A DNA stretch of 64,000 nucleotides from an uncultured candidatus Porisulfidus sp. (GCA_963668445.1 OY764335.1:532297-596296), one strand, 5' to 3'. Shown: positions 1-43,949, counted from the first letter of the stretch. The notes: generated by a model from the letters alone, not told the origin. Translations and numbers: made by a program.

Positions 1-424
1 TGCACGCGCGCATCTGAAATATGTATGTTGTTCCGTTGGTGAGCCCGGTTACCCATTGATAGGATCTATAGTTGGGATAGTCTCTTCCGCTGCTCGGGAT
101 TGCTGTCCACCCGCCGAACGTCCCATTCTCCGTCTTGTACCTGTACTCCACACGCGAGATCGTTCCTAGGTTCTGGGTGAGAAGCTCTAGAACTAGAGCC
201 TTGTCTAGTTCATCAACAATATATGGCTGGTTCGGCGTGTTCGGCACTGCCGCCGATGCAGGAAGCAAGCAATCGGCAGCGGCGATCAGGATGAAGAAGG
301 CAGCGAGCCTACGGCCGGATCTGATGCAACTGAGATCGCGGATCCGGGCCCGCGGTCGGAGAATAGCCGCAGGCGATGCATTCCTACGGCGCAGGCTCGG
401 GGGGGGGGGGGGGGGGGGGGGCAT
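1..424 (-). CDS. Partial (N-terminal) secreted FN3-module surface protein, paralogous to the N-terminus of the giant adhesin. The ATG at 424-422 is followed directly by a C23 tract read in frame as poly-Pro, and the gene continues beyond the window start.
   Basis: Hand translation of the minus strand gives M-P7-PSLRRRNASPAAILRPRARIRDLSCIRSGRRLAAFFILIAAADCLLPASAAVP, a signal-peptide-like hydrophobic core. It continues ...RVEYRYKTENGTFGGWTAIPSSGRDYPNYRSYQWVTGLTNGTTYIFQMRA. This matches the FN3-like modules of the giant protein (YQYRQKEGSNNYGGWTDIGSS...GLTNGTQYTFKIRAVN). There is no stop codon before position 1. It is not in the ORF track because it has no stop in the window. Confidence 0.45.
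   Translation of the reverse strand, partial: MPPPPPPPPSLRRRNASPAAILRPRARIRDLSCIRSGRRLAAFFILIAAADCLLPASAAVPNTPNQPYIVDELDKALVLELLTQNLGTISRVEYRYKTENGTFGGWTAIPSSGRDYPNYRSYQWVTGLTNGTTYIFQMRAC
399..421. repeat. Homopolymeric G/C tract, 23 nt, lying in the first codons of the minus-strand surface protein gene. Putative slipped-strand phase-variation switch.
   Basis: 23 consecutive G on the plus strand, counted directly. The minus-strand ATG at 424-422 is immediately 5' of the C-run and is in frame with the downstream ORF at the current tract length. Confidence 0.8.
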
Positions 425-715
425 GCAAGTCCAATGTCAAGGGCAGGTTTAGGATAATGCAGGAACTTTAACACAATATTTGTTGAATGCCAAATTTGGC
501 GCGCAAGGCGGCGGCCCGCGCTCGCCGCAGGTGCGGGCTTGGCGGGCTCGGCTGGAAGACGAGCTTCGTTAGGCACCGGCGCTTGGAATCTTCCCGGCCC
601 CTTTCCGCCATGCGCTGAAGCCCATGGCGTGGCTCGATGCGCCCGTCCGGCGCGATTCCCAACGCTTCGTCGCTGTCCGGCTTCGGTCGCTCCGCTCCCT
701 GCGCCGAACAGCGAG

Positions 716-814: not shown

Positions 815-842
815 TTGCGAAGACCATATTTTTTGGTATAAT
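815..842 (+). promoter_or_regulatory. Candidate sigma70 promoter for aprM-aprB-aprA: -35 TTGCGA (815-820), 16-nt spacer, -10 TATAAT (837-842).
   Basis: Hexamers with canonical spacing read directly from the sequence, 50 nt upstream of the proposed aprM ATG at 892. An alternative -35 TTGACA lies at 792-797. Confidence 0.35.
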
Positions 843-891
843 GGGCGAATCTGAGCACCCACAAACAGGAAGACCCCGGGTTCCAAAAGAC

Positions 892-1671
892 ATGTTTGCC
901 AGCAATCCCTTTGCTGAGCTGTCGGCGTACATTTCCAGCGCCGTGGCACAGGCTTTCGTCGCAGTGATGTTCGTGCTGGTCGTGGCGGGCACGCTGTTTG
1001 ATGTCATCCATAAGAAGAGCGCCAAATACTTTTTTGAAGACTGGCAGAAAGCCAAGAGCAAAGGAGCCAGGCAAGTCGGAGGCGGGGAAGTCGTATCCAT
1101 GGCCGCACGTACCTTGGCGAGCGAAGTGCTGACATCATCGGAATTTTGCTCCGCTCGGCGCAGGATCGCCCATTTGCTGACAATGTACGGCTTTGTCGCC
1201 TATATCGTGGCAACCGCCGTCATGGTATTCGGATACCCGACTTCGGCCAGTCCGACACCTGTCGTCTGGCCGATGGTGTGGCACATTGGAGCGCTGATGG
1301 TTTGCGTTGGCGGGTACTGGTTCTGGTTTTTCATTCGCGTCGATGTCACGGCCGAGGGCCATTCGCCGTTCCGCATCGTGCGCGCCGACCTGTTCGTCCT
1401 CTCGCTGGTGGCGAGCACGACCTTGGCCTTGGCCTGGTCATGGCTGCAGCCATCGATGCTTGGGTGGCTGTTTTTTGGGCTGTACGTGCTGGCTAGCGCC
1501 ATCCTGTTCGGATCCGTACCTTGGTCCAAGTTTGCGCATATGTTTTTCAAGCCTTCTGCCGCCTTGCAGAAAAGGGTGGCGGAAGCGGCCGGCACGAGAA
1601 GCAATTTGCCGGCGCCGGTGGACAAGCCCGAAACATTCGGTTCGGCGCGCCGGCTGCCGATGGATTATTGA
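892..1671 (+). CDS. aprM: Adenylylsulfate reductase membrane anchor AprM.
   Basis: Polytopic membrane protein (MFASNPFAELSAYISSAVAQAFVAVMFVLVVAG...) immediately upstream of aprB and aprA. The start was moved to the internal ATG at 892 because the ORF-track start at 841 overlaps the -10 hexamer. Confidence 0.75.
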   Translation: MFASNPFAELSAYISSAVAQAFVAVMFVLVVAGTLFDVIHKKSAKYFFEDWQKAKSKGARQVGGGEVVSMAARTLASEVLTSSEFCSARRRIAHLLTMYGFVAYIVATAVMVFGYPTSASPTPVVWPMVWHIGALMVCVGGYWFWFFIRVDVTAEGHSPFRIVRADLFVLSLVASTTLALAWSWLQPSMLGWLFFGLYVLASAILFGSVPWSKFAHMFFKPSAALQKRVAEAAGTRSNLPAPVDKPETFGSARRLPMDY

Positions 1672-1707
1672 CCCACCCAGCTTGGTAGCAGGAGGAAACA
1701 CAATACC

Positions 1708-2142
1708 ATGCCAACTTTCGTATACATGACACGCTGCGACGGCTGCGGCCACTGCGTCGATATCTGCCCTTCGGACATCATGCACATCGATAAGACCTAT
1801 CGGCGCGCCTACAACATTGAGCCCAACATGTGCTGGGAGTGCTACTCCTGCGTGAAGGCTTGCCCGCAAAATGCGATTGATGCGCGCGGCTATGCCGATT
1901 TTGCGCCTCTCGGCCACAGCGTCAGAGCGCTTCGTGAAGAAGAAAAGGGCACGATTTCCTGGAAAATCCTGTTCCGCGACGGCCGGGAGAAGAATTTCGT
2001 TTCGCCGATCCGGACCACCAAATGGGGCACGATTCCGTCCCCGGCCGAGTTGGAGGCACCCGGTGCGGAAGCGATGCAATCTCAAGAACTCGCGCACGAA
2101 CCGGATGCGCTCAACATCGACGGCGGACTACCCACGCTGTAG
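1708..2142 (+). CDS. aprB: Adenylylsulfate (APS) reductase beta subunit, an iron-sulfur protein.
   Basis: MPTFVYMTRCDGCGHCVDICPSDIMHID...CWECYSCVKACPQNAI carries two 4Fe-4S ferredoxin motifs, the AprB hallmark. An AGGAGG RBS lies at 1690-1695. Confidence 0.9.
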   Translation: MPTFVYMTRCDGCGHCVDICPSDIMHIDKTYRRAYNIEPNMCWECYSCVKACPQNAIDARGYADFAPLGHSVRALREEEKGTISWKILFRDGREKNFVSPIRTTKWGTIPSPAELEAPGAEAMQSQELAHEPDALNIDGGLPTL

Positions 2143-2171
2143 ATGGCCCACTAAAGCAAAAGCAGGAGCAC

Positions 2172-16219: not shown

Positions 16220-16259
16220 CAGCCGTGCCGGGCAGCGTGAAGGATGGGAGAGACAACCA

Positions 16260-29884: not shown

Positions 29885-32800
29885 TCAGAACATCAGTTCG
29901 ATTTTCAGATGGATGCTCAAGCCATTTGCCTCGTTGCTGGCGGCATGTTCGCCGAACACATCCGCGCGCCATTGCGCCATGGCGCCTGTCTCGCGCCCGA
30001 ACCGCACACCCAATCGCATTTTCGAGAGGTCGCTGCTGTGTTCCGCCTTGCCAAACCACTCGATCGGCCGCCTCAGCCACGGCGACCACATGCCGTATCC
30101 GACTTCCACTCCCATGGCTGCGGATTCATTCGGTGCTGATCGATCAGCCAGATCGGCGGCGTTCTCCTCCCACATCGTGGACGAGCTGTCGGTTGGCGCG
30201 CCCCATCGCGGGGACAGCATCAGGGACAGCCCGCGACCGTCCGCGTCTGGATTTTTCTTCAGCGTCACACTCACGCCCCGTTCTTCGTAGTCGCTCTCGG
30301 AATGTGCTGCCAGCCATCGCCCTTGTACATCCAGTGCCCAGCCGTCGACCACACTTTCGAAATACATGCCGCCGGCCAATTCCAGCCCGACTCCTTCGGA
30401 CCCGTTGCCACCATCGTAGCGGGCAAACGCCTGCGCGTACGGATTCGTGAAGTTGCCAGCCTCGTCCTCGATTGTCCGGGAATATTCCATTCCGGCACGG
30501 ACCTGATGCGCATTCGCTGTCAGGTCGTCAATCTCCAGAATCTCGCCATCGGCTTCCAGCTGGACGTATCCGGCATCGGCCATCAGTGCCCAGCGATGGT
30601 CCTTCCGCTCCGATTCCCCGAGTTCTCGGCGCAAGCCCACCGAAGCCATCTGCATCGATAGGTCTCTGTGCTCGGAATCCGCGCTGTCCATGCCGCTACG
30701 CAAGCTCTCCAATTCGATATCCCCCTCGCCTGCGCCCAGCATCATCCAAACCCCTACACCATCTCCCAAGTCCACATGGGCGTAAGGATGCACACTGGTC
30801 AGTTTCATCTCCATCGTGCCCGACCCGTTTAGACCTTGCTCGCCGAAAGAATAATCCGAATGCGCCCGACGATGCGATACCGCAACTCCGGCGATCCATT
30901 GTTTCTGAATGCGGGCATCAACGCCTACGTAGAACGAGCGCATGTCGCTTTCGTAATGGCCATTGCCATTGATTTCACCGGAGCTTTCCGTGTAGTCGCC
31001 CTGACCCCAGACGCTCCATTGCGCATGCGACGCTTCACTGCCCGCATTGAGGGAGAAGTCAAAAGTGCTTTCCAACAACCATTCGGTTGTGCTGATGCGA
31101 GAGCCCTCGTCCGTTACCGAGCCTGCTTTGAACCTTTCGATAACATCTAACGCGGCTGGCTGCGTCAAGGTTCGACGGTCGGATTCCGATGTGTCTGGCT
31201 CCAGTCCGGCCATACGAATCACGTCGTCGGGCGGCTTCGCAAACCTCCAATTTAGCACTTGCTGCGTACTTGCCATCATGCTGCCTGCGATTTGGCTCAA
31301 GGAGGCTTCCAAGACTGCCTTTTCCTCAATGGTATCTGTTTGCACCGCGATGGTAAAGGCGGCGGCGGCACTGTTGCCGTCGGCGTCGGTGGCGGTGTAG
31401 GTGTAGCCGGTGGCGGCCTGGGTGCCGCTGGGGGTGCCGGACAGGGTGCGGGTGGCGGCGTCGAAGCTCAGCCCGGGGGGCAGCGCCGGGGTGCCGCTGG
31501 TGCGCGCCAGCGCGTAGCTGAGCGCGCCGTTGCCGCCGCTGGCCAGCGGCAACGCCAAGTCCGTGATTCTGCGGCCTCGTGCATACACCTGGTCGGCAAT
31601 TGTGTCGTTCAAGGTTGGAGGGCCCAAGGGGGGGCTCTCTATAGATTCCTGCACCATGATGGTGAAGGTGGCGGTGGCGGCGTCGCCGTCGGCGTCGGTG
31701 GCGGTGTAGGTGTAGCCGGTGGCGGCCTGGGTGCCGCTGGGGGTGCCGGACAGGGTGCGGGTGGCGGCGTCGAAGCTCAGCCCGGGGGGCAGCGCCGGGG
31801 TGCCGCTGGTGCGCGCCAGCGCGTAGCTGAGCGCGCCGTTGCCGCCGGTCGCGGCCGGCAGCACCAGATCGGTGATCGGGCGGCCCTCGGAGTAGGCCTG
31901 GTCGGACGGCGCGGTCACGGCGGGCTGGCTGTTGGACTCGACCGCGAGGCTGAAGGTCGCCGAGTCGGTCTCGCCGTCGGCGTCGGTGACCGCGTACTTC
32001 AGGCTGGCGGTGGCGGCGCTGCCCGGCGTGGTGCCGGACAGGGTGCGGGTGGCGGCGGCGAACGACAGCCAGGCGGGCAGCGCGGTGCCGTCTTCCTTGG
32101 TCAGCGCGTAGCTCAGCGGGGCGTTGCCGCCGGTGGCGGCCGGCAGCTGGTGCGAGACGCTGCGCCCGGTGCCGTAGGTGAGGCCGGCCTGGGACGGCAG
32201 GTCCGGGGCGCTGTTCGCGGCCACCGCGATGGTGAAGGTGGCGGTGGCGGCGTCGCCGTCGGCGTCGGTGGCGGTGTAGGTGTAGCCGGTGGCGGCCTGG
32301 GTGCCGCTGGGGGTGCCGGACAGGGTGCGGGTGGCGGCGTCGAAGCTCAGCCCGGGGGGCAGCGCCGGGGTGCCGCTGGTGCGCGCCAGCGCGTAGCTGA
32401 GCGCGCCGTTGCCGCCGGTCGCGGCCGGCAGCACCAGATCGGTGATCGGGCGGCCCTCGGAGTAGGCCTGGTCGGACGGCGCGGTCACGGCGGGCTGGCT
32501 GTTGGACTCGACCGCGAGGCTGAAGGTCGCCGAGTCGGTCTCGCCGTCGGCGTCGGTGACCGCGTACTTCAGGCTGGCGGTGGCGGCGCTGCCCGGCGTG
32601 GTGCCGGACAGGGTGCGGGTGGCGGCGGCGAACGACAGCCAGGCGGGCAGCGCGGTGCCGTCTTCCTTGGTCAGCGCGTAGCTCAGCGGGGCGTTGCCGC
32701 CGGTGGCGGCCGGCAGCTGGTGCGAGACGCTGCGCCCGGTGCCGTAGGTGAGGCCGGCCTGGGACGGCAGGTCCGGGGCGCTGTTCGCGGCCACCGCGAT

Positions 32801-35800
32801 GGTGAAGGTGGCGGTGGCGGCGTCGCCGTCGGCGTCGGTGGCGGTGTAGGTGTAGCCGGTGGCGGCCTGGGTGCCGCTGGGGGTGCCGGACAGGGTGCGG
32901 GTGGCGGCGTCGAAGCTCAGCCCGGGGGGCAGCGCCGGGGTGCCGCTGGTGCGCGCCAGCGCGTAGCTGAGCGCGCCGTTGCCGCCGGTCGCGGCCGGCA
33001 GCACCAGATCGGTGATCGGGCGGCCCTCGGAGTAGGCCTGGTCGGACGGCGCGGTCACGGCGGGCTGGCTGTTGGACTCGACCGCGAGGCTGAAGGTCGC
33101 CGAGTCGGTCTCGCCGTCGGCGTCGGTGACCGCGTACTTCAGGCTGGCGGTGGCGGCGCTGCCCGGCGTGGTGCCGGACAGGGTGCGGGTGGCGGCGGCG
33201 AACGACAGCCAGGCGGGCAGCGCGGTGCCGTCTTCCTTGGTCAGCGCGTAGCTCAGCGGGGCGTTGCCGCCGGTGGCGGCCGGCAGCTGGTGCGAGACGC
33301 TGCGCCCGGTGCCGTAGGTGAGGCCGGCCTGGGACGGCAGGTCCGGGGCGCTGTTCGCGGCCACCGCGATGGTGAAGGTGGCGGTGGCGGCGTCGCCGTC
33401 GGCGTCGGTGGCGGTGTAGGTGTAGCCGGTGGCGGCCTGGGTGCCGCTGGGGGTGCCGGACAGGGTGCGGGTGGCGGCGTCGAAGCTCAGCCCGGGGGGC
33501 AGCGCCGGGGTGCCGCTGGTGCGCGCCAGCGCGTAGCTGAGCGCGCCGTTGCCGCCGGTCGCGGCCGGCAGCACCAGATCGGTGATCGGGCGGCCCTCGG
33601 AGTAGGCCTGGTCGGACGGCGCGGTCACGGCGGGCTGGCTGTTGGACTCGACCGCGAGGCTGAAGGTCGCCGAGTCGGTCTCGCCGTCGGCGTCGGTGAC
33701 CGCGTACTTCAGGCTGGCGGTGGCGGCGCTGCCCGGCGTGGTGCCGGACAGGGTGCGGGTGGCGGCGGCGAACGACAGCCAGGCGGGCAGCGCGGTGCCG
33801 TCTTCCTTGGTCAGCGCGTAGCTCAGCGGGGCGTTGCCGCCGGTGGCGGCCGGCAGCTGGTGCGAGACGCTGCGCCCGGTGCCGTAGGTGAGGCCGGCCT
33901 GGGACGGCAGGTCCGGGGCGCTGTTCGCGGCCACCGCGATGGTGAAGGTGGCGGTGGCGGCGTCGCCGTCGGCGTCGGTGGCGGTGTAGGTGTAGCCGGT
34001 GGCGGCCTGGGTGCCGCTGGGGGTGCCGGACAGGGTGCGGGTGGCGGCGTCGAAGCTCAGCCCGGGGGGCAGCGCCGGGGTGCCGCTGGTGCGCGCCAGC
34101 GCGTAGCTGAGCGCGCCGTTGCCGCCGGTCGCGGCCGGCAGCACCAGATCGGTGATCGGGCGGCCCTCGGAGTAGGCCTGGTCGGACGGCGCGGTCACGG
34201 CGGGCTGGCTGTTGGACTCGACCGCGAGGCTGAAGGTCGCCGAGTCGGTCTCGCCGTCGGCGTCGGTGACCGCGTACTTCAGGCTGGCGGTGGCGGCGCT
34301 GCCCGGCGTGGTGCCGGACAGGGTGCGGGTGGCGGCGGCGAACGACAGCCAGGCGGGCAGCGCGGTGCCGTCTTCCTTGGTCAGCGCGTAGCTCAGCGGG
34401 GCGTTGCCGCCGGTGGCGGCCGGCAGCTGGTGCGAGACGCTGCGCCCGGTGCCGTAGGTGAGGCCGGCCTGGGACGGCAGGTCCGGGGCGCTGTTCGCGG
34501 CCACCGCGATGGTGAAGGTGGCGGTGGCGGCGTCGCCGTCGGCGTCGGTGGCGGTGTAGGTGTAGCCGGTGGCGGCCTGGGTGCCGCTGGGGGTGCCGGA
34601 CAGGGTGCGGGTGGCGGCGTCGAAGCTCAGCCCGGGGGGCAGCGCCGGGGTGCCGCTGGTGCGCGCCAGCGCGTAGCTGAGCGCGCCGTTGCCGCCGGTC
34701 GCGGCCGGCAGCACCAGATCGGTGATCGGGCGGCCCTCGGAGTAGGCCTGGTCGGACGGCGCGGTCACGGCGGGCTGGCTGTTGGACTCGACCGCGAGGC
34801 TGAAGGTCGCCGAGTCGGTCTCGCCGTCGGCGTCGGTGACCGCGTACTTCAGGCTGGCGGTGGCGGCGCTGCCCGGCGTGGTGCCGGACAGGGTGCGGGT
34901 GGCGGCGGCGAACGACAGCCAGGCGGGCAGCGCGGTGCCGTCTTCCTTGGTCAGCGCGTAGCTCAGCGGGGCGTTGCCGCCGGTGGCGGCCGGCAGCTGG
35001 TGCGAGACGCTGCGCCCGGTGCCGTAGGTGAGGCCGGCCTGGGACGGCAGGTCCGGGGCGCTGTTCGCGGCCACCGCGATGGTGAAGGTGGCGGTGGCGG
35101 CGTCGCCGTCGGCGTCGGTGGCGGTGTAGGTGTAGCCGGTGGCGGCCTGGGTGCCGCTGGGGGTGCCGGACAGGGTGCGGGTGGCGGCGTCGAAGCTCAG
35201 CCCGGGGGGCAGCGCCGGGGTGCCGCTGGTGCGCGCCAGCGCGTAGCTGAGCGCGCCGTTGCCGCCGGTCGCGGCCGGCAGCACCAGATCGGTGATCGGG
35301 CGGCCCTCGGAGTAGGCCTGGTCGGACGGCGCGGTCACGGCGGGCTGGCTGTTGGACTCGACCGCGAGGCTGAAGGTCGCCGAGTCGGTCTCGCCGTCGG
35401 CGTCGGTGACCGCGTACTTCAGGCTGGCGGTGGCGGCGCTGCCCGGCGTGGTGCCGGACAGGGTGCGGGTGGCGGCGGCGAACGACAGCCAGGCGGGCAG
35501 CGCGGTGCCGTCTTCCTTGGTCAGCGCGTAGCTCAGCGGGGCGTTGCCGCCGGTGGCGGCCGGCAGCTGGTGCGAGACGCTGCGCCCGGTGCCGTAGGTG
35601 AGGCCGGCCTGGGACGGCAGGTCCGGGGCGCTGTTCGCGGCCACCGCGATGGTGAAGGTGGCGGTGGCGGCGTCGCCGTCGGCGTCGGTGGCGGTGTAGG
35701 TGTAGCCGGTGGCGGCCTGGGTGCCGCTGGGGGTGCCGGACAGGGTGCGGGTGGCGGCGTCGAAGCTCAGCCCGGGGGGCAGCGCCGGGGTGCCGCTGGT

Positions 35801-38800
35801 GCGCGCCAGCGCGTAGCTGAGCGCGCCGTTGCCGCCGGTCGCGGCCGGCAGCACCAGATCGGTGATCGGGCGGCCCTCGGAGTAGGCCTGGTCGGACGGC
35901 GCGGTCACGGCGGGCTGGCTGTTGGACTCGACCGCGAGGCTGAAGGTCGCCGAGTCGGTCTCGCCGTCGGCGTCGGTGACCGCGTACTTCAGGCTGGCGG
36001 TGGCGGCGCTGCCCGGCGTGGTGCCGGACAGGGTGCGGGTGGCGGCGGCGAACGACAGCCAGGCGGGCAGCGCGGTGCCGTCTTCCTTGGTCAGCGCGTA
36101 GCTCAGCGGGGCGTTGCCGCCGGTGGCGGCCGGCAGCTGGTGCGAGACGCTGCGCCCGGTGCCGTAGGTGAGGCCGGCCTGGGACGGCAGGTCCGGGGCG
36201 CTGTTCGCGGCCACCGCGATGGTGAAGGTGGCGGTGGCGGCGTCGCCGTCGGCGTCGGTGGCGGTGTAGGTGTAGCCGGTGGCGGCCTGGGTGCCGCTGG
36301 GGGTGCCGGACAGGGTGCGGGTGGCGGCGTCGAAGCTCAGCCCGGGGGGCAGCGCCGGGGTGCCGCTGGTGCGCGCCAGCGCGTAGCTGAGCGCGCCGTT
36401 GCCGCCGGTCGCGGCCGGCAGCACCAGATCGGTGATCGGGCGGCCCTCGGAGTAGGCCTGGTCGGACGGCGCGGTCACGGCGGGCTGGCTGTTGGACTCG
36501 ACCGCGAGGCTGAAGGTCGCCGAGTCGGTCTCGCCGTCGGCGTCGGTGACCGCGTACTTCAGGCTGGCGGTGGCGGCGCTGCCCGGCGTGGTGCCGGACA
36601 GGGTGCGGGTGGCGGCGGCGAACGACAGCCAGGCGGGCAGCGCGGTGCCGTCTTCCTTGGTCAGCGCGTAGCTCAGCGGGGCGTTGCCGCCGGTGGCGGC
36701 CGGCAGCTGGTGCGAGACGCTGCGCCCGGTGCCGTAGGTGAGGCCGGCCTGGGACGGCAGGTCCGGGGCGCTGTTCGCGGCCACCGCGATGGTGAAGGTG
36801 GCGGTGGCGGCGTCGCCGTCGGCGTCGGTGGCGGTGTAGGTGTAGCCGGTGGCGGCCTGGGTGCCGCTGGGGGTGCCGGACAGGGTGCGGGTGGCGGCGT
36901 CGAAGCTCAGCCCGGGGGGCAGCGCCGGGGTGCCGCTGGTGCGCGCCAGCGCGTAGCTGAGCGCGCCGTTGCCGCCGGTCGCGGCCGGCAGCACCAGATC
37001 GGTGATCGGGCGGCCCTCGGAGTAGGCCTGGTCGGACGGCGCGGTCACGGCGGGCTGGCTGTTGGACTCGACCGCGAGGCTGAAGGTCGCCGAGTCGGTC
37101 TCGCCGTCGGCGTCGGTGACCGCGTACTTCAGGCTGGCGGTGGCGGCGCTGCCCGGCGTGGTGCCGGACAGGGTGCGGGTGGCGGCGGCGAACGACAGCC
37201 AGGCGGGCAGCGCGGTGCCGTCTTCCTTGGTCAGCGCGTAGCTCAGCGGGGCGTTGCCGCCGGTGGCGGCCGGCAGCTGGTGCGAGACGCTGCGCCCGGT
37301 GCCGTAGGTGAGGCCGGCCTGGGACGGCAGGTCCGGGGCGCTGTTCGCGGCCACCGCGATGGTGAAGGTGGCGGTGGCGGCGTCGCCGTCGGCGTCGGTG
37401 GCGGTGTAGGTGTAGCCGGTGGCGGCCTGGGTGCCGCTGGGGGTGCCGGACAGGGTGCGGGTGGCGGCGTCGAAGCTCAGCCCGGGGGGCAGCGCCGGGG
37501 TGCCGCTGGTGCGCGCCAGCGCGTAGCTGAGCGCGCCGTTGCCGCCGGTCGCGGCCGGCAGCACCAGATCGGTGATCGGGCGGCCCTCGGAGTAGGCCTG
37601 GTCGGACGGCGCGGTCACGGCGGGCTGGCTGTTGGACTCGACCGCGAGGCTGAAGGTCGCCGAGTCGGTCTCGCCGTCGGCGTCGGTGACCGCGTACTTC
37701 AGGCTGGCGGTGGCGGCGCTGCCCGGCGTGGTGCCGGACAGGGTGCGGGTGGCGGCGGCGAACGACAGCCAGGCGGGCAGCGCGGTGCCGTCTTCCTTGG
37801 TCAGCGCGTAGCTCAGCGGGGCGTTGCCGCCGGTGGCGGCCGGCAGCTGGTGCGAGACGCTGCGCCCGGTGCCGTAGGTGAGGCCGGCCTGGGACGGCAG
37901 GTCCGGGGCGCTGTTCGCGGCCACCGCGATGGTGAAGGTGGCGGTGGCGGCGTCGCCGTCGGCGTCGGTGGCGGTGTAGGTGTAGCCGGTGGCGGCCTGG
38001 GTGCCGCTGGGGGTGCCGGACAGGGTGCGGGTGGCGGCGTCGAAGCTCAGCCCGGGGGGCAGCGCCGGGGTGCCGCTGGTGCGCGCCAGCGCGTAGCTGA
38101 GCGCGCCGTTGCCGCCGGTCGCGGCCGGCAGCACCAGATCGGTGATCGGGCGGCCCTCGGAGTAGGCCTGGTCGGACGGCGCGGTCACGGCGGGCTGGCT
38201 GTTGGACTCGACCGCGAGGCTGAAGGTCGCCGAGTCGGTCTCGCCGTCGGCGTCGGTGACCGCGTACTTCAGGCTGGCGGTGGCGGCGCTGCCCGGCGTG
38301 GTGCCGGACAGGGTGCGGGTGGCGGCGGCGAACGACAGCCAGGCGGGCAGCGCGGTGCCGTCTTCCTTGGTCAGCGCGTAGCTCAGCGGGGCGTTGCCGC
38401 CGGTGGCGGCCGGCAGCTGGTGCGAGACGCTGCGCCCGGTGCCGTAGGTGAGGCCGGCCTGGGACGGCAGGTCCGGGGCGCTGTTCGCGGCCACCGCGAT
38501 GGTGAAGGTGGCGGTGGCGGCGTCGCCGTCGGCGTCGGTGGCGGTGTAGGTGTAGCCGGTGGCGGCCTGGGTGCCGCTGGGGGTGCCGGACAGGGTGCGG
38601 GTGGCGGCGTCGAAGCTCAGCCCGGGGGGCAGCGCCGGGGTGCCGCTGGTGCGCGCCAGCGCGTAGCTGAGCGCGCCGTTGCCGCCGGTCGCGGCCGGCA
38701 GCACCAGATCGGTGATCGGGCGGCCCTCGGAGTAGGCCTGGTCGGACGGCGCGGTCACGGCGGGCTGGCTGTTGGACTCGACCGCGAGGCTGAAGGTCGC

Positions 38801-41800
38801 CGAGTCGGTCTCGCCGTCGGCGTCGGTGACCGCGTACTTCAGGCTGGCGGTGGCGGCGCTGCCCGGCGTGGTGCCGGACAGGGTGCGGGTGGCGGCGGCG
38901 AACGACAGCCAGGCGGGCAGCGCGGTGCCGTCTTCCTTGGTCAGCGCGTAGCTCAGCGGGGCGTTGCCGCCGGTGGCGGCCGGCAGCTGGTGCGAGACGC
39001 TGCGCCCGGTGCCGTAGGTGAGGCCGGCCTGGGACGGCAGGTCCGGGGCGCTGTTCGCGGCCACCGCGATGGTGAAGGTGGCGGTGGCGGCGTCGCCGTC
39101 GGCGTCGGTGGCGGTGTAGGTGTAGCCGGTGGCGGCCTGGGTGCCGCTGGGGGTGCCGGACAGGGTGCGGGTGGCGGCGTCGAAGCTCAGCCCGGGGGGC
39201 AGCGCCGGGGTGCCGCTGGTGCGCGCCAGCGCGTAGCTGAGCGCGCCGTTGCCGCCGGTCGCGGCCGGCAGCACCAGATCGGTGATCGGGCGGCCCTCGG
39301 AGTAGGCCTGGTCGGACGGCGCGGTCACGGCGGGCTGGCTGTTGGACTCGACCGCGAGGCTGAAGGTCGCCGAGTCGGTCTCGCCGTCGGCGTCGGTGAC
39401 CGCGTACTTCAGGCTGGCGGTGGCGGCGCTGCCCGGCGTGGTGCCGGACAGGGTGCGGGTGGCGGCGGCGAACGACAGCCAGGCGGGCAGCGCGGTGCCG
39501 TCTTCCTTGGTCAGCGCGTAGCTCAGCGGGGCGTTGCCGCCGGTGGCGGCCGGCAGCTGGTGCGAGACGCTGCGCCCGGTGCCGTAGGTGAGGCCGGCCT
39601 GGGACGGCAGGTCCGGGGCGCTGTTCGCGGCCACCGCGATGGTGAAGGTGGCGGTGGCGGCGTCGCCGTCGGCGTCGGTGGCGGTGTAGGTGTAGCCGGT
39701 GGCGGCCTGGGTGCCGCTGGGGGTGCCGGACAGGGTGCGGGTGGCGGCGTCGAAGCTCAGCCCGGGGGGCAGCGCCGGGGTGCCGCTGGTGCGCGCCAGC
39801 GCGTAGCTGAGCGCGCCGTTGCCGCCGGTCGCGGCCGGCAGCACCAGATCGGTGATCGGGCGGCCCTCGGAGTAGGCCTGGTCGGACGGCGCGGTCACGG
39901 CGGGCTGGCTGTTGGACTCGACCGCGAGGCTGAAGGTCGCCGAGTCGGTCTCGCCGTCGGCGTCGGTGACCGCGTACTTCAGGCTGGCGGTGGCGGCGCT
40001 GCCCGGCGTGGTGCCGGACAGGGTGCGGGTGGCGGCGGCGAACGACAGCCAGGCGGGCAGCGCGGTGCCGTCTTCCTTGGTCAGCGCGTAGCTCAGCGGG
40101 GCGTTGCCGCCGGTGGCGGCCGGCAGCTGGTGCGAGACGCTGCGCCCGGTGCCGTAGGTGAGGCCGGCCTGGGACGGCAGGTCCGGGGCGCTGTTCGCGG
40201 CCACCGCGATGGTGAAGGTGGCGGTGGCGGCGTCGCCGTCGGCGTCGGTGGCGGTGTAGGTGTAGCCGGTGGCGGCCTGGGTGCCGCTGGGGGTGCCGGA
40301 CAGGGTGCGGGTGGCGGCGTCGAAGCTCAGCCCGGGGGGCAGCGCCGGGGTGCCGCTGGTGCGCGCCAGCGCGTAGCTGAGCGCGCCGTTGCCGCCGGTC
40401 GCGGCCGGCAGCACCAGATCGGTGATCGGGCGGCCCTCGGAGTAGGCCTGGTCGGACGGCGCGGTCACGGCGGGCTGGCTGTTGGACTCGACCGCGAGGC
40501 TGAAGGTCGCCGAGTCGGTCTCGCCGTCGGCGTCGGTGACCGCGTACTTCAGGCTGGCGGTGGCGGCGCTGCCCGGCGTGGTGCCGGACAGGGTGCGGGT
40601 GGCGGCGGCGAACGACAGCCAGGCGGGCAGCGCGGTGCCGTCTTCCTTGGTCAGCGCGTAGCTCAGCGGGGCGTTGCCGCCGGTGGCGGCCGGCAGCTGG
40701 TGCGAGACGCTGCGCCCGGTGCCGTAGGTGAGGCCGGCCTGGGACGGCAGGTCCGGGGCGCTGTTCGCGGCCACCGCGATGGTGAAGGTGGCGGTGGCGG
40801 CGTCGCCGTCGGCGTCGGTGGCGGTGTAGGTGTAGCCGGTGGCGGCCTGGGTGCCGCTGGGGGTGCCGGACAGGGTGCGGGTGGCGGCGTCGAAGCTCAG
40901 CCCGGGGGGCAGCGCCGGGGTGCCGCTGGTGCGCGCCAGCGCGTAGCTGAGCGCGCCGTTGCCGCCGGTCGCGGCCGGCAGCACCAGATCGGTGATCGGG
41001 CGGCCCTCGGAGTAGGCCTGGTCGGACGGCGCGGTCACGGCGGGCTGGCTGTTGGACTCGACCGCGAGGCTGAAGGTCGCCGAGTCGGTCTCGCCGTCGG
41101 CGTCGGTGACCGCGTACTTCAGGCTGGCGGTGGCGGCGCTGCCCGGCGTGGTGCCGGACAGGGTGCGGGTGGCGGCGGCGAACGACAGCCAGGCGGGCAG
41201 CGCGGTGCCGTCTTCCTTGGTCAGCGCGTAGCTCAGCGGGGCGTTGCCGCCGGTGGCGGCCGGCAGCTGGTGCGAGACGCTGCGCCCGGTGCCGTAGGTG
41301 AGGCCGGCCTGGGACGGCAGGTCCGGGGTTAGCCTCAGTGGCGTTGCTTTTGCTGTATCTGAAGGGGGGCTGCCACCGGTCGAATTCACCGCACGAATCT
41401 GAAAGGAGTATTCCACCCCGGTGGTCAAGTTGCCAACCGTGTGGCTTGTGGTATTTGCTCCGCTTTTGTTGATATTTCCCCAGATCTCGAATACGCTATC
41501 CGTTTCGGTCTTTTTCCGTATTTGGTATGTCGTAATGTTCGTGTCGGACGGATCCGTCCATTCGAGCAAGACCTGCTGATCGCCTGCAGTGGCCGCGAAG
41601 CCGCTCGGTTTCGCCGGCCTCGGCCTCGGTGTCACCGACACCTCGTCCGATTCTGTGCCATTGCCCACTGGGTTGACCGCTCTGATCTTGAACGTGTATT
41701 GGGTTCCGCTGGTCAATCCGGTGACCGTGTGGCTTGTGGTGGTCGCGCTGCTGGAGCCGATATCCGTCCACCCGCCATAATTGTTCGAGCCTTCTTTTTG

Positions 41801-42895
41801 CCGGTACTGGTATTTCGAAATGCTTGCGTTGGACGGATTGGTCCATCCCAAGAACACCCGAGTTCCATCAAGTGCTTGTGCGGTGAAATTGCTTGGTTTG
41901 CCCGGTGCCGTCAGATTCGCCATTACTGTAGATGAAGAACCAGCACCCGCTGGATTCACTGCACGGAGTTGAAACGTATATTCCGTCTCATTGGTCAATC
42001 CGGTGATCGTGTGGCTTGTGGTGGTTGCGCTGCTGGAGCCGATATCCGTCCATACGCCATAATTGTTTGAGCCTTCTTTTTGCCGGTACTGGTATTTCGA
42101 AATGGTTGTGTCCGACGGATCCGTCCATTTCAATGCCACGCTCTGATTGCCTACTGTCGCGGCAAGGTTGGTCGGGGCCGCTGGCGGAGGCGTTGCCGTT
42201 GCTGTTGCTTCATCCGATTCCAGCCCATCGCCGACTGAGTTGACCGCTCTGATCTTGAACGTGTATTGGGTTCCGTTGGTCAATCCGGTGACCGTGTGGG
42301 TCGTGGTGGTCGCGCTGCTGGAGCCGATATCCGTCCATCCGCCGTAATTGTTCGAGCCTTCCTTTTGCCGGTACTGGTATTTCGAAATGGTTGTGTCCGA
42401 CGGATCCGTCCATTTCAAGTTCATGCTTTTGTCAGCCGGCGTCACGGTGAAGTCGGTTGGTTTGTCCGGCGATGCCGACATGGAAACCGAGTTGGAGCCT
42501 AGGGAGAGTCCGCAGGATGATGATGTATGTTTAAGCCAATTGCTGTCTTTTGTGAACGATGACAGGTTCATGGTGTTGGTGCCGATCTTGACTTTCACGT
42601 CAGCGGTTTTCAGGTTGTTCGGATCCTTATTGAACTGGATCCAGCATTGGCCAGAAGATTGGAAAAAGTCTTTTATTTCGTATGTGGTCCCCCGGAAATC
42701 AAAATCGTCATCGCTTAAACTCCCATATGTGATGATGAGTGTGCTGTATCCTAGAGAATTGCCGAAACCCTGTGCTGCATTTAACGTGGCACTCCAGAAG
42801 AGTCCTGAATTGGCCGCGTATGTCGGTCGCGCTTCTCCTGTCAGTAGCACTGCAAGCAGCAATAAGAGATGTACTGCCTTGGGTTCCTTGCACAT
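29885..42895 (-). CDS. Giant (about 4336 aa) secreted repeat adhesin. Order: signal peptide, FN3-like modules, 17 tandem copies of a 190-aa double He_PIG/'putative Ig' unit, then a C-terminal autotransporter-like beta-barrel.
   Basis: Signal peptide MCKEPKAVHLLLLLAVLLTGEARPTYA/AN. Repeated motif LPxGLSFDAATRTLSGTP. The C-terminal 400 aa have alternating hydrophobic beta-strand patterning (AQWSVWGQGDY...), are Gly/aromatic-rich and end ...HLKIELMF. The start was moved from the ORF-track 43090 to the ATG at 42895, ahead of the signal peptide. Confidence 0.85.
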   Translation of the reverse strand: MCKEPKAVHLLLLLAVLLTGEARPTYAANSGLFWSATLNAAQGFGNSLGYSTLIITYGSLSDDDFDFRGTTYEIKDFFQSSGQCWIQFNKDPNNLKTADVKVKIGTNTMNLSSFTKDSNWLKHTSSSCGLSLGSNSVSMSASPDKPTDFTVTPADKSMNLKWTDPSDTTISKYQYRQKEGSNNYGGWTDIGSSSATTTTHTVTGLTNGTQYTFKIRAVNSVGDGLESDEATATATPPPAAPTNLAATVGNQSVALKWTDPSDTTISKYQYRQKEGSNNYGVWTDIGSSSATTTSHTITGLTNETEYTFQLRAVNPAGAGSSSTVMANLTAPGKPSNFTAQALDGTRVFLGWTNPSNASISKYQYRQKEGSNNYGGWTDIGSSSATTTSHTVTGLTSGTQYTFKIRAVNPVGNGTESDEVSVTPRPRPAKPSGFAATAGDQQVLLEWTDPSDTNITTYQIRKKTETDSVFEIWGNINKSGANTTSHTVGNLTTGVEYSFQIRAVNSTGGSPPSDTAKATPLRLTPDLPSQAGLTYGTGRSVSHQLPAATGGNAPLSYALTKEDGTALPAWLSFAAATRTLSGTTPGSAATASLKYAVTDADGETDSATFSLAVESNSQPAVTAPSDQAYSEGRPITDLVLPAATGGNGALSYALARTSGTPALPPGLSFDAATRTLSGTPSGTQAATGYTYTATDADGDAATATFTIAVAANSAPDLPSQAGLTYGTGRSVSHQLPAATGGNAPLSYALTKEDGTALPAWLSFAAATRTLSGTTPGSAATASLKYAVTDADGETDSATFSLAVESNSQPAVTAPSDQAYSEGRPITDLVLPAATGGNGALSYALARTSGTPALPPGLSFDAATRTLSGTPSGTQAATGYTYTATDADGDAATATFTIAVAANSAPDLPSQAGLTYGTGRSVSHQLPAATGGNAPLSYALTKEDGTALPAWLSFAAATRTLSGTTPGSAATASLKYAVTDADGETDSATFSLAVESNSQPAVTAPSDQAYSEGRPITDLVLPAATGGNGALSYALARTSGTPALPPGLSFDAATRTLSGTPSGTQAATGYTYTATDADGDAATATFTIAVAANSAPDLPSQAGLTYGTGRSVSHQLPAATGGNAPLSYALTKEDGTALPAWLSFAAATRTLSGTTPGSAATASLKYAVTDADGETDSATFSLAVESNSQPAVTAPSDQAYSEGRPITDLVLPAATGGNGALSYALARTSGTPALPPGLSFDAATRTLSGTPSGTQAATGYTYTATDADGDAATATFTIAVAANSAPDLPSQAGLTYGTGRSVSHQLPAATGGNAPLSYALTKEDGTALPAWLSFAAATRTLSGTTPGSAATASLKYAVTDADGETDSATFSLAVESNSQPAVTAPSDQAYSEGRPITDLVLPAATGGNGALSYALARTSGTPALPPGLSFDAATRTLSGTPSGTQAATGYTYTATDADGDAATATFTIAVAANSAPDLPSQAGLTYGTGRSVSHQLPAATGGNAPLSYALTKEDGTALPAWLSFAAATRTLSGTTPGSAATASLKYAVTDADGETDSATFSLAVESNSQPAVTAPSDQAYSEGRPITDLVLPAATGGNGALSYALARTSGTPALPPGLSFDAATRTLSGTPSGTQAATGYTYTATDADGDAATATFTIAVAANSAPDLPSQAGLTYGTGRSVSHQLPAATGGNAPLSYALTKEDGTALPAWLSFAAATRTLSGTTPGSAATASLKYAVTDADGETDSATFSLAVESNSQPAVTAPSDQAYSEGRPITDLVLPAATGGNGALSYALARTSGTPALPPGLSFDAATRTLSGTPSGTQAATGYTYTATDADGDAATATFTIAVAANSAPDLPSQAGLTYGTGRSVSHQLPAATGGNAPLSYALTKEDGTALPAWLSFAAATRTLSGTTPGSAATASLKYAVTDADGETDSATFSLAVESNSQPAVTAPSDQAYSEGRPITDLVLPAATGGNGALSYALARTSGTPALPPGLSFDAATRTLSGTPSGTQAATGYTYTATDADGDAATATFTIAVAANSAPDLPSQAGLTYGTGRSVSHQLPAATGGNAPLSYALTKEDGTALPAWLSFAAATRTLSGTTPGSAATASLKYAVTDADGETDSATFSLAVESNSQPAVTAPSDQAYSEGRPITDLVLPAATGGNGALSYALARTSGTPALPPGLSFDAATRTLSGTPSGTQAATGYTYTATDADGDAATATFTIAVAANSAPDLPSQAGLTYGTGRSVSHQLPAATGGNAPLSYALTKEDGTALPAWLSFAAATRTLSGTTPGSAATASLKYAVTDADGETDSATFSLAVESNSQPAVTAPSDQAYSEGRPITDLVLPAATGGNGALSYALARTSGTPALPPGLSFDAATRTLSGTPSGTQAATGYTYTATDADGDAATATFTIAVAANSAPDLPSQAGLTYGTGRSVSHQLPAATGGNAPLSYALTKEDGTALPAWLSFAAATRTLSGTTPGSAATASLKYAVTDADGETDSATFSLAVESNSQPAVTAPSDQAYSEGRPITDLVLPAATGGNGALSYALARTSGTPALPPGLSFDAATRTLSGTPSGTQAATGYTYTATDADGDAATATFTIAVAANSAPDLPSQAGLTYGTGRSVSHQLPAATGGNAPLSYALTKEDGTALPAWLSFAAATRTLSGTTPGSAATASLKYAVTDADGETDSATFSLAVESNSQPAVTAPSDQAYSEGRPITDLVLPAATGGNGALSYALARTSGTPALPPGLSFDAATRTLSGTPSGTQAATGYTYTATDADGDAATATFTIAVAANSAPDLPSQAGLTYGTGRSVSHQLPAATGGNAPLSYALTKEDGTALPAWLSFAAATRTLSGTTPGSAATASLKYAVTDADGETDSATFSLAVESNSQPAVTAPSDQAYSEGRPITDLVLPAATGGNGALSYALARTSGTPALPPGLSFDAATRTLSGTPSGTQAATGYTYTATDADGDAATATFTIAVAANSAPDLPSQAGLTYGTGRSVSHQLPAATGGNAPLSYALTKEDGTALPAWLSFAAATRTLSGTTPGSAATASLKYAVTDADGETDSATFSLAVESNSQPAVTAPSDQAYSEGRPITDLVLPAATGGNGALSYALARTSGTPALPPGLSFDAATRTLSGTPSGTQAATGYTYTATDADGDAATATFTIAVAANSAPDLPSQAGLTYGTGRSVSHQLPAATGGNAPLSYALTKEDGTALPAWLSFAAATRTLSGTTPGSAATASLKYAVTDADGETDSATFSLAVESNSQPAVTAPSDQAYSEGRPITDLVLPAATGGNGALSYALARTSGTPALPPGLSFDAATRTLSGTPSGTQAATGYTYTATDADGDAATATFTIAVAANSAPDLPSQAGLTYGTGRSVSHQLPAATGGNAPLSYALTKEDGTALPAWLSFAAATRTLSGTTPGSAATASLKYAVTDADGETDSATFSLAVESNSQPAVTAPSDQAYSEGRPITDLVLPAATGGNGALSYALARTSGTPALPPGLSFDAATRTLSGTPSGTQAATGYTYTATDADGDAATATFTIAVAANSAPDLPSQAGLTYGTGRSVSHQLPAATGGNAPLSYALTKEDGTALPAWLSFAAATRTLSGTTPGSAATASLKYAVTDADGETDSATFSLAVESNSQPAVTAPSDQAYSEGRPITDLVLPAATGGNGALSYALARTSGTPALPPGLSFDAATRTLSGTPSGTQAATGYTYTATDADGDAATATFTIMVQESIESPPLGPPTLNDTIADQVYARGRRITDLALPLASGGNGALSYALARTSGTPALPPGLSFDAATRTLSGTPSGTQAATGYTYTATDADGNSAAAAFTIAVQTDTIEEKAVLEASLSQIAGSMMASTQQVLNWRFAKPPDDVIRMAGLEPDTSESDRRTLTQPAALDVIERFKAGSVTDEGSRISTTEWLLESTFDFSLNAGSEASHAQWSVWGQGDYTESSGEINGNGHYESDMRSFYVGVDARIQKQWIAGVAVSHRRAHSDYSFGEQGLNGSGTMEMKLTSVHPYAHVDLGDGVGVWMMLGAGEGDIELESLRSGMDSADSEHRDLSMQMASVGLRRELGESERKDHRWALMADAGYVQLEADGEILEIDDLTANAHQVRAGMEYSRTIEDEAGNFTNPYAQAFARYDGGNGSEGVGLELAGGMYFESVVDGWALDVQGRWLAAHSESDYEERGVSVTLKKNPDADGRGLSLMLSPRWGAPTDSSSTMWEENAADLADRSAPNESAAMGVEVGYGMWSPWLRRPIEWFGKAEHSSDLSKMRLGVRFGRETGAMAQWRADVFGEHAASNEANGLSIHLKIELMF
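31640..41335. repeat. Seventeen nucleotide-identical tandem repeats of 570 bp inside the giant adhesin gene. A divergent partial copy lies at each end.
   Basis: Sequence blocks 570 nt apart are character-for-character identical; for example the lines at 32221 and 33361 continue identically across the whole array. Each unit encodes DLPSQAGLTYGTGRSV...TFTIAVAANSAP. Confidence 0.9.
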
Positions 42896-42936
42896 GTCCT
42901 GCAACCATTTCTCAATGGCCTTACGACAGGGCCGAT

Positions 42937-42960
42937 GGGGGGGGGGGGGGGGGGGGGGGG
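42937..42960. repeat. Homopolymeric G/C tract, 24 nt, 41 nt upstream of the giant adhesin start codon. Putative phase-variation switch.
   Basis: 24 consecutive G on the plus strand, counted directly. It lies between the adhesin ATG (42895) and the AT-rich upstream region. Confidence 0.8.
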
Positions 42961-43949
42961 CTGTAATGTTAGGAATGCGCCGCCTGCTGCCATTCGCTGG
43001 CCGGGCCGGATCAATGCTGGCCAAAGCCTTCCGGAAATCCATGCGCGCTAAGCCTTCCCGTGAAAAGCGGAGAATTTGCTCTGGCACCAATTGCGCGGGT
43101 TATAATCCATAGAGATAGCATCTCCACTATGTTTGAATTCTTGTTGTGGTTAATGTGGGTTTGTTCGTTACTTTCTGTTATGTATTTATTAGTTACATCA
43201 CATTTTTGCATGCATGTTTAGGTATCTTATAGCAGATTCCCACAATTTGTCAACAACTGCAAGGCAAATGTCAAACCAAAGCCGGAACGACTATGGCGAG
43301 AAAACTAAGACTTCCCCGAAGGTCCAAAGTGTCAGAAGACTCGGATTCGAAGCGTCAAGTCGGTGTTGAGTTTCAAGGACTGGAGACGGATTTGGAGACT
43401 TAAGGCCGCAGGATTCGACTTGTATCCTTCCTGCCATGATTACGTGCGGATGGTCATAATCAATCTATGGATGACTGCATGAGCATGCTTGATCGGACGC
43501 ACGAAACCGTGCATGGCATACATCGGAGCGTATGCCCACAAGGACGGCATCGCCATCGCCCGGGCGCTGTCGGTCGCAATGGGTGGCATCGCCCGTCATT
43601 CCATGAGTCTTTGCCGCGACGTTCACGATACGGGAGGCTTTGTCGAATGCTGCAGTCGAAGTGTCGCGGCCGGTCTGGGGAACCCTTGATCATGTTCCAG
43701 AGTGCCGGAAAATTCCTAGTAGCAAGACGAAAGCAGCTCGCGACGAACGTGTGATCTTGCAGCAGCCAATCCGCACATAGCAACTTGATCAATCATCGTC
43801 ATTAGCAGTGGCACCCTGACTTGGTGCAAACCTCCGCATTCTCCACTACAAGACATGGTATCATGAAATGCTGCATCGCAGAGCTTTCGCCCGACATCGG
43901 CGGAGGTTACGAGCCGGTCACAACATAGCAGCACAATTATTCTCCAACG

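Follow-up and report, generated by a model that had tools for sequence, protein, structure and literature searches.

A candidate translational phase switch formed by a 23-nt poly-C tract at the front of an FN3 surface protein gene from an uncultured Porisulfidus

The window analyzed here is a 64-kb stretch of DNA from an uncultured candidatus Porisulfidus sp. (GCA_963668445.1 OY764335.1:532297-596296), at one edge of which lies the front of an FN3 gene, hereafter gene 1, whose ATG is followed directly by 23 C residues. We favor the reading that this C23 tract is translated as part of the gene's 5' end, that it is hypermutable, and that it mediates translational phase variation at a contingency locus, with a rough probability of 0.58. 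The anatomy of the tract, the consequences of length changes for the reading frame, and the recurrence of such tracts at the fronts of FN3 genes in unrelated genomes can be read directly from the DNA. A hypermutable expression switch would be the most economical reading of these comparative data.

The tract is visible on the plus strand as G23 at 399-421, which corresponds to C23 at 421-399 on the minus strand, with the ATG at 424-422 directly before it; the minus strand reads ...CCCTTGACATTGGACTTGC-ATG-C23-GAGCCTGCG.... Gene 1 runs off the window on the position 1 side, and its elements are as follows.

399..421, minus strand: poly-C tract; codons 2-9 are seven CCC plus CCg (the g at 398), giving Pro8.
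422..424, minus strand: ATG, the sole canonical start in frame with the signal peptide; no Shine-Dalgarno (SD) sequence, anti-SD duplex of -3.0 kcal/mol.
437..439, minus strand: in-frame TGA five codons upstream of ATG 424, which shuts the frame; the frame is open for only 15 nt before the tract.
314..397, minus strand: Arg-rich stretch, amino acids 10-37, SLRRRNASPAAILRPRARIRDLSCIRSG, between the tract and the hydrophobic core; no canonical start codon.
248..313, minus strand: signal-peptide-like segment RRLAAFFILIAAADCLLPASAA, amino acids 38-59, resembling ...LALLFAWLLMAPGIADA-AVP of the related locus L060.
2..256, minus strand: first FN3 module, amino acids 57-141, from BLASTP; the gene continues past the window.
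465..493, minus strand: sigma-70-like promoter match TTGGCA-17-TAAAGT with a TG extension; a consensus match only.

Translation from 424 to 2 gives MPPPPPPPPSLRRRNASPAAILRPRARIRDLSCIRSGRRLAAFFILIAAADCLLPASAAVPNTPNQP..., with 141 codons seen before the window edge, and can be divided into M-P8-SLRRRNASPAAILRPRARIRDLSCIRSGRR-LAAFFILIAAADCLLPASAA-VPNTPNQP.... No start earlier than ATG 424 is possible, because the frame is shut by the in-frame TGA at 439-437, and the next in-frame ATG, GTG, or TTG is a TTG 130 nt past the tract, at the end of the hydrophobic core. Computed length changes break the frame in both directions, as C22 leads to a stop 110 nt past the tract (36 codons) and C24 to a stop 12 nt past it (4 codons). 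The C-terminal 85 residues of the gene 1 fragment align with several FN3 modules of a giant open reading frame (ORF) at 29885-43090 (4401 codons) in the same window (BLASTP, E=3e-8 to 3e-4, 32-43% identity), while the Pfam fn3 model stayed below threshold on the fragment, which the window edge cuts.

These results bear out an initial annotation of the locus on several counts: a 23-nt G/C tract does stand directly past an ATG and in frame as poly-Pro (Met-Pro8 in the translation), the ORF does run into a signal-peptide-like segment and an FN3 module homologous to the giant adhesin (BLASTP, E=3e-8), no other ATG, GTG, or TTG lies in frame before the hydrophobic core, and a slip of +/-1 would truncate the product, with early stops computed at both C22 and C24. 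Its further claim that ATG 424 is the true start and the tract intragenic stands in part, as this ATG is the sole canonical start that can deliver the signal peptide, but it has no SD and relatives often have a second start.

With respect to transcription, the scanned 1-kb region contains two sigma-70-like matches on its two strands, against 0.3 expected in shuffled sequence, and from the site at 465-493, transcription would begin about 35 nt ahead of ATG 424 and would include the tract. RNA folding predicts that the poly-C runs of both long tracts in the window, the second of which is described below, are single stranded, and an unpaired tract in the mRNA is compatible with SD-independent initiation at ATG 424. 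The 132-amino-acid N-terminal fragment of gene 1 had no match among 5.8 billion proteins, and a protein-pattern scan of metagenome contigs for the gene 1 N terminus returned only a generic FN3 array without a tract (L079).

Apart from G23 (399-421) and G24 (42937-42960), the longest homopolymer in the 64 kb is 7 nt, and a G run of at least 23 nt is expected 1.6e-6 times in the window if bases are drawn independently from one composition. Both tracts lie at the 5' ends of the only two FN3 genes in the window, in each case with C on the coding strand. The second of these genes, which encodes the giant protein, has the following elements.

29885..43042, minus strand: giant surface protein that combines four FN3 modules with about 33 Ig-like repeats (He_PIG, 288 nt each) and ends in an autotransporter beta-domain.
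42937..42960, minus strand: second tract, C24 on the coding strand (G24 on the plus strand); it belongs to the giant gene's 5' leader and is read in the long ORF as Ala-Pro7-His.
43040..43042, minus strand: upstream ATG of the giant gene, arranged as AAGG, 10 nt, ATG (-6.5 kcal/mol), 82 nt before the tract.
42904-42902 (TTG) and 42895-42893 (ATG), minus strand: alternative starts past the second tract, 32 and 41 nt after it.
43224..43253, minus strand: promoter-like site TTGACA-18-TAAGAT, about 260 nt upstream of the second tract; the best match for the giant gene.

Through C24, the ATG at 43042-43040 is in frame with the adhesin, and here too computed changes of one nucleotide end the frame early (stop at +93 with C23 and at +13 with C25). 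The TTG at 42904 or the ATG at 42895 would yield a canonical signal peptide, MCKEPKAVHLLLLLAVLLTGEARPTYA, but their SDs are poor (-2.9 and -2.7 kcal/mol versus -6.5 kcal/mol at ATG 43042). The autotransporter beta-domain scores 29 bits against a cutoff of 26, and this C-terminal domain identifies the giant protein as an outer-membrane-anchored adhesin. We considered a common cassette, such as a duplicated or mobile promoter module, as the source of both tracts and rejected it, as their flanks show no meaningful alignment; it follows that each tract arose or was kept up on its own, although the relative position in the two related genes is the same. The repeat region of the giant gene (31742-41267, about 33 tandem 288-nt He_PIG units) is strongly skewed in both GC and AT and has a GC content of about 77%, compared with about 62% elsewhere.

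Homologs were found for the giant gene's N-terminal domain together with its FN3. A pattern scan with one genome per species gave 76 loci (635 kb) around related FN3 genes, nearly all from metagenome-assembled genomes (MAGs) labeled Dehalococcoidia, Tepidiformaceae, Acidimicrobiales, Arenicellales, Paracoccaceae, Binatia, Nitrospira, Ca. Porisulfidus, and similar. The lengths of G/C runs in these loci are bimodal: 940, 137, 20, and 5 runs of 5, 6, 7, and 8 nt, respectively, are followed by none of 9-10 nt and then by 20 of 11-28 nt, where runs of at least 14 nt are expected about 0.1 times in 635 kb. All but one of these 20 long runs lie at the 5' end of an FN3 gene, the sole exception (L049) being unrelated to an FN3 gene. 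Sixteen of the 20 are poly-C on the FN3-gene strand, 1-131 nt before a start codon that leads into a normal signal peptide (one each in L003, L004, L006, L008, L022, L033, L048, and L060, two in L017, and three each in L010 and L029); they come from eight MAGs labeled Dehalococcoidia, Tepidiformaceae, Chloroflexi, Terriglobia, and Gammaproteobacteria, and the genes encode large FN3 proteins. With the two tracts of the window counted in, the coding strand has C and never G in 18 of 18 leader tracts, which is what transcription and translation of the tracts would lead one to expect. The bimodal run lengths and the position at FN3 5' ends thus place the window tracts in a recurrent, nonrandom class.

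A tract is carried by 12 of the 46 matched FN3 genes that have their 5' end within the locus. It is not universal in the family, as it is missing from the close N-terminal-domain homologs P0014 (L001) and P0006 (L002). The tractless L001, from a Rhodospirillales MAG, has at 816-1000 a 43-residue Arg/Pro-rich extension before the hydrophobic core of P0014 and no nearer canonical start, and long N-terminal extensions may be a family trait. A protein search with the N terminus of L006 for the same locus in other samples gave no matches.

The remaining three FN3-associated tracts are poly-G on the gene strand. Two of them, from a single Dehalococcoidia MAG, form the spacer of sigma-70-like promoters upstream of an FN3 gene, the classical transcriptional arrangement: TTGACA-gaca-G16-TAGAGT with a 20-nt spacer in L063 (1919-1934) and TTGACT-ata-G16-TAGACT with a 19-nt spacer in L075 (1538-1553). 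In the third, an Arenicellales FN3 gene (L078, 3247-3257), G11 lies 8 nt before the ATG, at the SD position. Across the sample, coding-strand poly-G was seen only at promoter or SD positions and poly-C only at leader or translated positions. That the association of G/C runs with FN3 gene fronts spans different mechanisms points to selection for variable expression rather than for one sequence function.

Because a start precedes almost every signal peptide, we had read the tracts of the relatives early on as elements of the 5' untranslated region, a view that was reversed by the SDs and starts found upstream of the tracts. In L048, AGGAGG, 7 nt, and TTG lie 26 nt before C11 and in frame with the FN3 ORF; in L022, AAGGA, 4 nt, and ATG lie in frame 70 nt before C20, and the downstream ATG has no SD. 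Two further loci show a stop/start overlap instead. The GTG of L060 (AGGAGG-7nt-GTG, 76 nt before C21, within 3246-3348) opens a leader frame whose TGA overlaps the signal-peptide ATG (ATGA), and the frame from the ATG of L003 (GGAGG-10nt-ATG, 28 nt before C17, within 3147-3215) ends on TGATG at the main ATG. These overlaps suggest translational coupling as a possible third state of the switch. A promoter of L060 read by eye (TTGACA-17-TAACGT) was not confirmed by the promoter scan and is not relied on.

Counted over nine independent lineages, the two of the window included, the upstream start with the best SD is in frame in seven and stop/start coupled in two. The binomial probability of at least seven of nine against an expectation of 1/3 is 0.008, a rough figure, as the starts were chosen post hoc. 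A strong SD and a start upstream of the tracts mean that ribosomes very probably traverse the tracts of the relatives.

The Tepidiformaceae MAG OZ220489 (L004, L010, L017, L029) contains nine FN3 paralogs in which common elements precede the tract in a fixed order. A clear promoter, TTGCGT-17-TA[G/C/A]AAT, lies about 70 nt upstream of the tract and is followed by an (A)AGGAG-type SD, which two of the copies have in degraded form, 7 nt, ATG TCT A, and then C14-C25. The upstream ATG is found 7 nt before the tract in eight of the nine, the ninth (L029_2868) reading ATAG, and it is in frame in only two, the copies being spread over all three frames. Between the conserved flanks, the tracts measure 14, 15, 15, 16, 16, 16, 18, 18, and 25 nt, and these lengths are the only evidence in this analysis for tract hypervariability. 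The spacing from tract to downstream start (30, 30, 30, 31, and 35 nt) also varies among the paralogs by non-multiples of 3. In L017_545, the leader ORF would end 2 nt before the TTG start at C16, but not at the present C15, and in L029, A10 comes immediately after the C25 tract, forming a compound homopolymer. Taken as a whole, this pattern is what a family of independently switching genes would be predicted to look like.

Considering these data, we propose the following model for gene 1, in which slippage at the locus, use of ATG 424, and an ON/OFF phenotype are the parts that we infer. First, translation would begin at ATG 424, possibly independently of an SD, since the region is unstructured. 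The ribosome would then read C23 as Pro8, followed by the Arg-rich n-region and the signal peptide. During replication, slipped-strand mispairing would frequently add 1 nt to the tract or remove 1 nt from it. The signal peptide and FN3 would stay in frame only at lengths of 23 +/- 3n, the others stopping after 4 or 36 codons, and the population would become a reversible mix of expressing and nonexpressing cells. The giant autotransporter adhesin would carry an independent C24 switch of the same type.

The initial annotation had already spoken of a phase switch at a contingency locus. In favor of that proposal are a tract that exceeds chance expectation, recurs at FN3 5' ends, and breaks the frame upon a length change; against it is the ATG without an SD. 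Two features of contingency loci are found here, a repeat long enough to slip (C23, where a homopolymer of roughly at least 7 nt is needed) and a surface-type product, the latter predicted from the signal-peptide-like segment, the FN3 module, and a paralog that is an FN3/Ig autotransporter.

Several observations weigh against a translational phase switch in gene 1. ATG 424 has no SD, while AGGAGG precedes aprB1, aprB2, and katG and GGAGG precedes metK in the same organism. The 28 residues from Pro8 to the twin Arg at the beginning of the signal-peptide-like segment are rich in Arg, Ala, and Pro, as noncoding GC-rich DNA also translates. Most relatives, as well as the giant gene, keep a start right before the signal peptide, in some cases with a strong SD (-10.9 in L006, -11.5 in L033, and -8.5 in L008), and the tract in those genes may therefore not be obligatory coding sequence. 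According to the EF-P literature, ribosomes should stall on a run of eight Pro codons at positions 2-9. Gene 1, cut by the window edge, could be a pseudogene. The statement that the current length is the ON state depends on the consensus length of a 23-nt homopolymer, which is uncertain, as assemblies are not reliable on such a length, and neither a look-up of the exact AprB sequence nor a search of genome and metagenome contigs with the 24-nt flank found a sister locus with which to compare it. A separate puzzle is tract length, which is two to three times that in characterized systems; mismatch-repair-proficient hosts may need longer runs.

We also put forward a broader, more tentative hypothesis, which we regard as possible but not probable. 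Here, the very long poly-C would belong to an SD-driven leader ORF, ahead of a second start, and would represent convergent, cross-phylum control of FN3 "eukaryote-like" surface proteins in sponge-associated bacteria. Tract length would set three states: an N-terminally extended fusion, a stop at ATGA or TGATG with reinitiation at the signal-peptide start, and wrong-frame read-through that blocks expression. The labels of the MAGs concerned are Dehalococcoidia, Tepidiformaceae, Chloroflexi, Terriglobia, Gammaproteobacteria, and Arenicellales, to which the aprMBA-carrying sulfur oxidizer of the window is added; some of the tracts are poly-G. If true, this would amount to combinatorial, heritable variation of host-facing adhesins within an animal that feeds by phagocytosing bacteria.

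The rival explanation that best survives our data, although we consider it unlikely, is that the real start of gene 1 lies elsewhere, either at a noncanonical codon such as ATC 325-323 or at a codon lost by mutation, and that the poly-C is part of a 5' leader or leader ORF. In this scenario, tract length would act through leader-ORF termination and reinitiation, through Rho loading on unstructured C-rich RNA, or through leader length, instead of through the frame of the adhesin. C-rich, unstructured RNA is what Rho prefers, and the poly-C is predicted to be single stranded. The relatives lend this explanation weight as well: in most of them a canonical start, with a strong SD in some cases, lies between tract and signal peptide; the SD-driven leader ORFs of L060 and L003 end at the ATGA and TGATG that overlap the downstream start; and the tract-to-start spacings of the Tepidiformaceae paralogs differ by non-multiples of 3. 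The missing SD of ATG 424 points in the same direction, but the ATC has no SD either and is extremely rare as a start; from it, the protein would read IRSGRR..., which may be compared with ATG AGA TCG of L060 (MRSR...). In gene 1, moreover, no ATG, GTG, or TTG is present between the tract and the hydrophobic core, and in-frame upstream starts are overrepresented among the independent lineages, both of which argue against this rival.

A second rival, which seems quite improbable to us, is graded control, in which RNA polymerase slippage and/or ribosome frameshifting, together with stalling on poly-Pro, would make the products heterogeneous at any DNA length and would result in reduced and noisy expression with no clean heritable ON/OFF. 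A C23 run is far longer than the RNA-DNA hybrid, and Pro8 at codons 2-9 is a strong EF-P-dependent stall; transcriptional slippage, on the other hand, is documented mainly for A/T runs. While tracts two to three times longer than characterized switches (modal length G9 in C. jejuni; PMC3401435) would suit such a mechanism, the spread of the Tepidiformaceae paralogs over all three frames is as expected of switching at the DNA level.

It is also doubtful, to a similarly high degree, that the tract has no adaptive role, with gene 1 a decaying paralog or the poly-Pro a tolerated extension and the homopolymer kept by mutational expansion. Such a view draws on the incompleteness of gene 1 in the window, on an ATG without an SD, and on an N-terminal fragment of 132 amino acids unmatched in 5.8 billion proteins. 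At a deletion bias of 23:1, as reported at G11 (PMC3401435), however, long tracts should decay unless maintained. The same feature occurs at the same relative position, between nonhomologous flanks and always on the coding strand, in at least 10 lineages of several phyla, and the exclusive use of CCC points to a feature of the nucleotide rather than the protein level.

Long poly-G runs are a known class of artifact, but an assembly or sequencing error (poly-G from two-color chemistry or a chimeric join) is hardly credible here, as the two window tracts, both internal, occupy corresponding positions in a pair of related genes whose frames are open across them, equivalent tracts occur in many independent MAG assemblies (at least some PacBio HiFi, another, L048 with C11, SPAdes style), the giant 288-nt repeat array implies long-read data, and the recurrence at FN3 gene fronts disposes of this explanation.

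Four other candidate mechanisms were tried for the window tracts and rejected. A promoter-spacer or activator-spacing switch fails because the best promoter-like sites (465-493 and 43224-43253) lie upstream and no usable -10 element follows the tracts; a TTGACA at 440-435 lies 13 nt before the 23-nt tract, again with no -10 past it. No inverted repeat pair brackets the intergenic region at 425-840, which speaks against an inverton. Pfam scans of both N termini at E<=5 gave no match to the extended signal peptide region (ESPR) of autotransporters, and sequestration of an SD by the poly-C is contradicted by the folding, which leaves the tract unpaired.

Gene names in the surroundings are read from translations only. 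Gene 1 diverges from a cluster of aprM-like, aprB, and aprA genes, followed by katG, and the gene content of the window appears to be that of a sulfur oxidizer. There are two aprB-aprA pairs (841-4019 and 15758-18227), the first preceded by the aprM-like membrane protein, whose start is ambiguous (841 or 892). A Fic/DOC-family gene at 19080-20084 lies in a low-GC (46%) kilobase and was possibly acquired horizontally. A 60-nt unit is tandemly arrayed at 48790-49240 (6.3 copies, 94% matches) and has a shorter 15-nt subperiod; read by eye, the minus strand of the array would code for a repeat rich in Lys, Arg, and Ala.

A role in recognition and in the evasion of phagocytosis in sponge symbiosis has long been proposed for FN3 and other "eukaryote-like" surface proteins. 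To our knowledge, simple-repeat phase variation, textbook material for a few pathogens and commensals, is hardly documented in uncultured environmental symbionts, and our search of the literature for homopolymeric tracts, phase variation, or contingency loci in connection with sponges or symbionts turned up nothing relevant. The taxon names of the relatives suggest that they are sponge associated; for the organism of the window, the same is suggested, less firmly, by homology. A Sanger sponge genome note calls Porisulfidus a known sponge symbiont and reports PacBio HiFi reads, with metaMDBG among the tools listed (PMC12988363). If the tracts switch, these proteins would not be constitutive but stochastically varied within symbiont populations of several phyla, and the metagenomic presence or absence of such genes would need a different reading. 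For the window itself, it would mean two independently switchable adhesin genes in a sulfur-oxidizing bacterium. In addition, homopolymers of 14-28 nt are a systematic hazard for annotation, as frames and start sites around them are unreliable. The recurrence of 11-28-nt G/C tracts at FN3 gene fronts in MAGs of different phyla is apparently unreported, and it adds interest beyond that of a single contingency locus.

In its functional type, the proposed switch is the known translational simple sequence repeat (SSR) switch of pilC, opa, nanH3, and Campylobacter jejuni. The neisserial pilC poly-G and opa CTCTT repeats, located in the signal-peptide-coding region, are reportedly cases of translational SSR phase variation. 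As in these genes, the start codon proposed for gene 1 is separated by a simple repeat from the mature part of a secreted adhesin, and the repeat number would set the frame; the nine Tepidiformaceae copies further recall opa as a multiparalog family that is mostly out of frame. Unlike the neisserial tracts, the window tract is about twice as long, directly follows the ATG, encodes Pro instead of Gly or a hydrophobic repeat, and precedes the hydrophobic core instead of lying within it; moreover, the host is an uncultured sulfur oxidizer rather than a pathogen, and the tract is known here from sequence alone.

C. jejuni lacks mismatch repair. Its contingency genes resemble our loci in having G/C homopolymers, putatively intragenic in our case, in genes for surface structures, at many loci per genome. 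G/C runs far shorter than the window tracts, of only 8-14 nt, already switch in known systems, which is a precedent in favor of our model. The C. jejuni tracts do so 1e-4 to 4e-3 times per division, and more often the longer they are, the modal length being 9 and deletions outnumbering insertions 23:1 at G11 (PMC3401435). Tracts of 23-28 nt, by contrast, are unexpected under that deletion-biased regime.

Switches with a homopolymer in the promoter spacer include the Bordetella fim poly-C, the Mycoplasma hyorhinis vlp poly-A, and Neisseria porA and opc. Our relatives L063 and L075, with their G16 spacers, are of this type, unlike the window tracts, which lie downstream of the best promoter-like sites. 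The ESPR of autotransporters and two-partner secretion proteins is similar in that a long N-terminal extension precedes a classical signal peptide, and the window paralog is an autotransporter; unlike the ESPR, the extension in the window is Pro/Arg rich and has no conserved motif.

The gene nanH3 of Gardnerella, in which within-colony length heterogeneity has been shown experimentally, carries a poly-C of 8-14 nt about 100 nt into the ORF, just past the signal peptide (bioRxiv 10.1101/2020.09.16.300947). Like gene 1, nanH3 encodes a secreted protein of the cell surface and has coding-strand poly-C toward its 5' end; only every third length gives the full-length protein, as is predicted for gene 1 too, and frameshifts in the annotation result. 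The two differ in that the poly-C of gene 1 has 23 residues and lies before the signal peptide.

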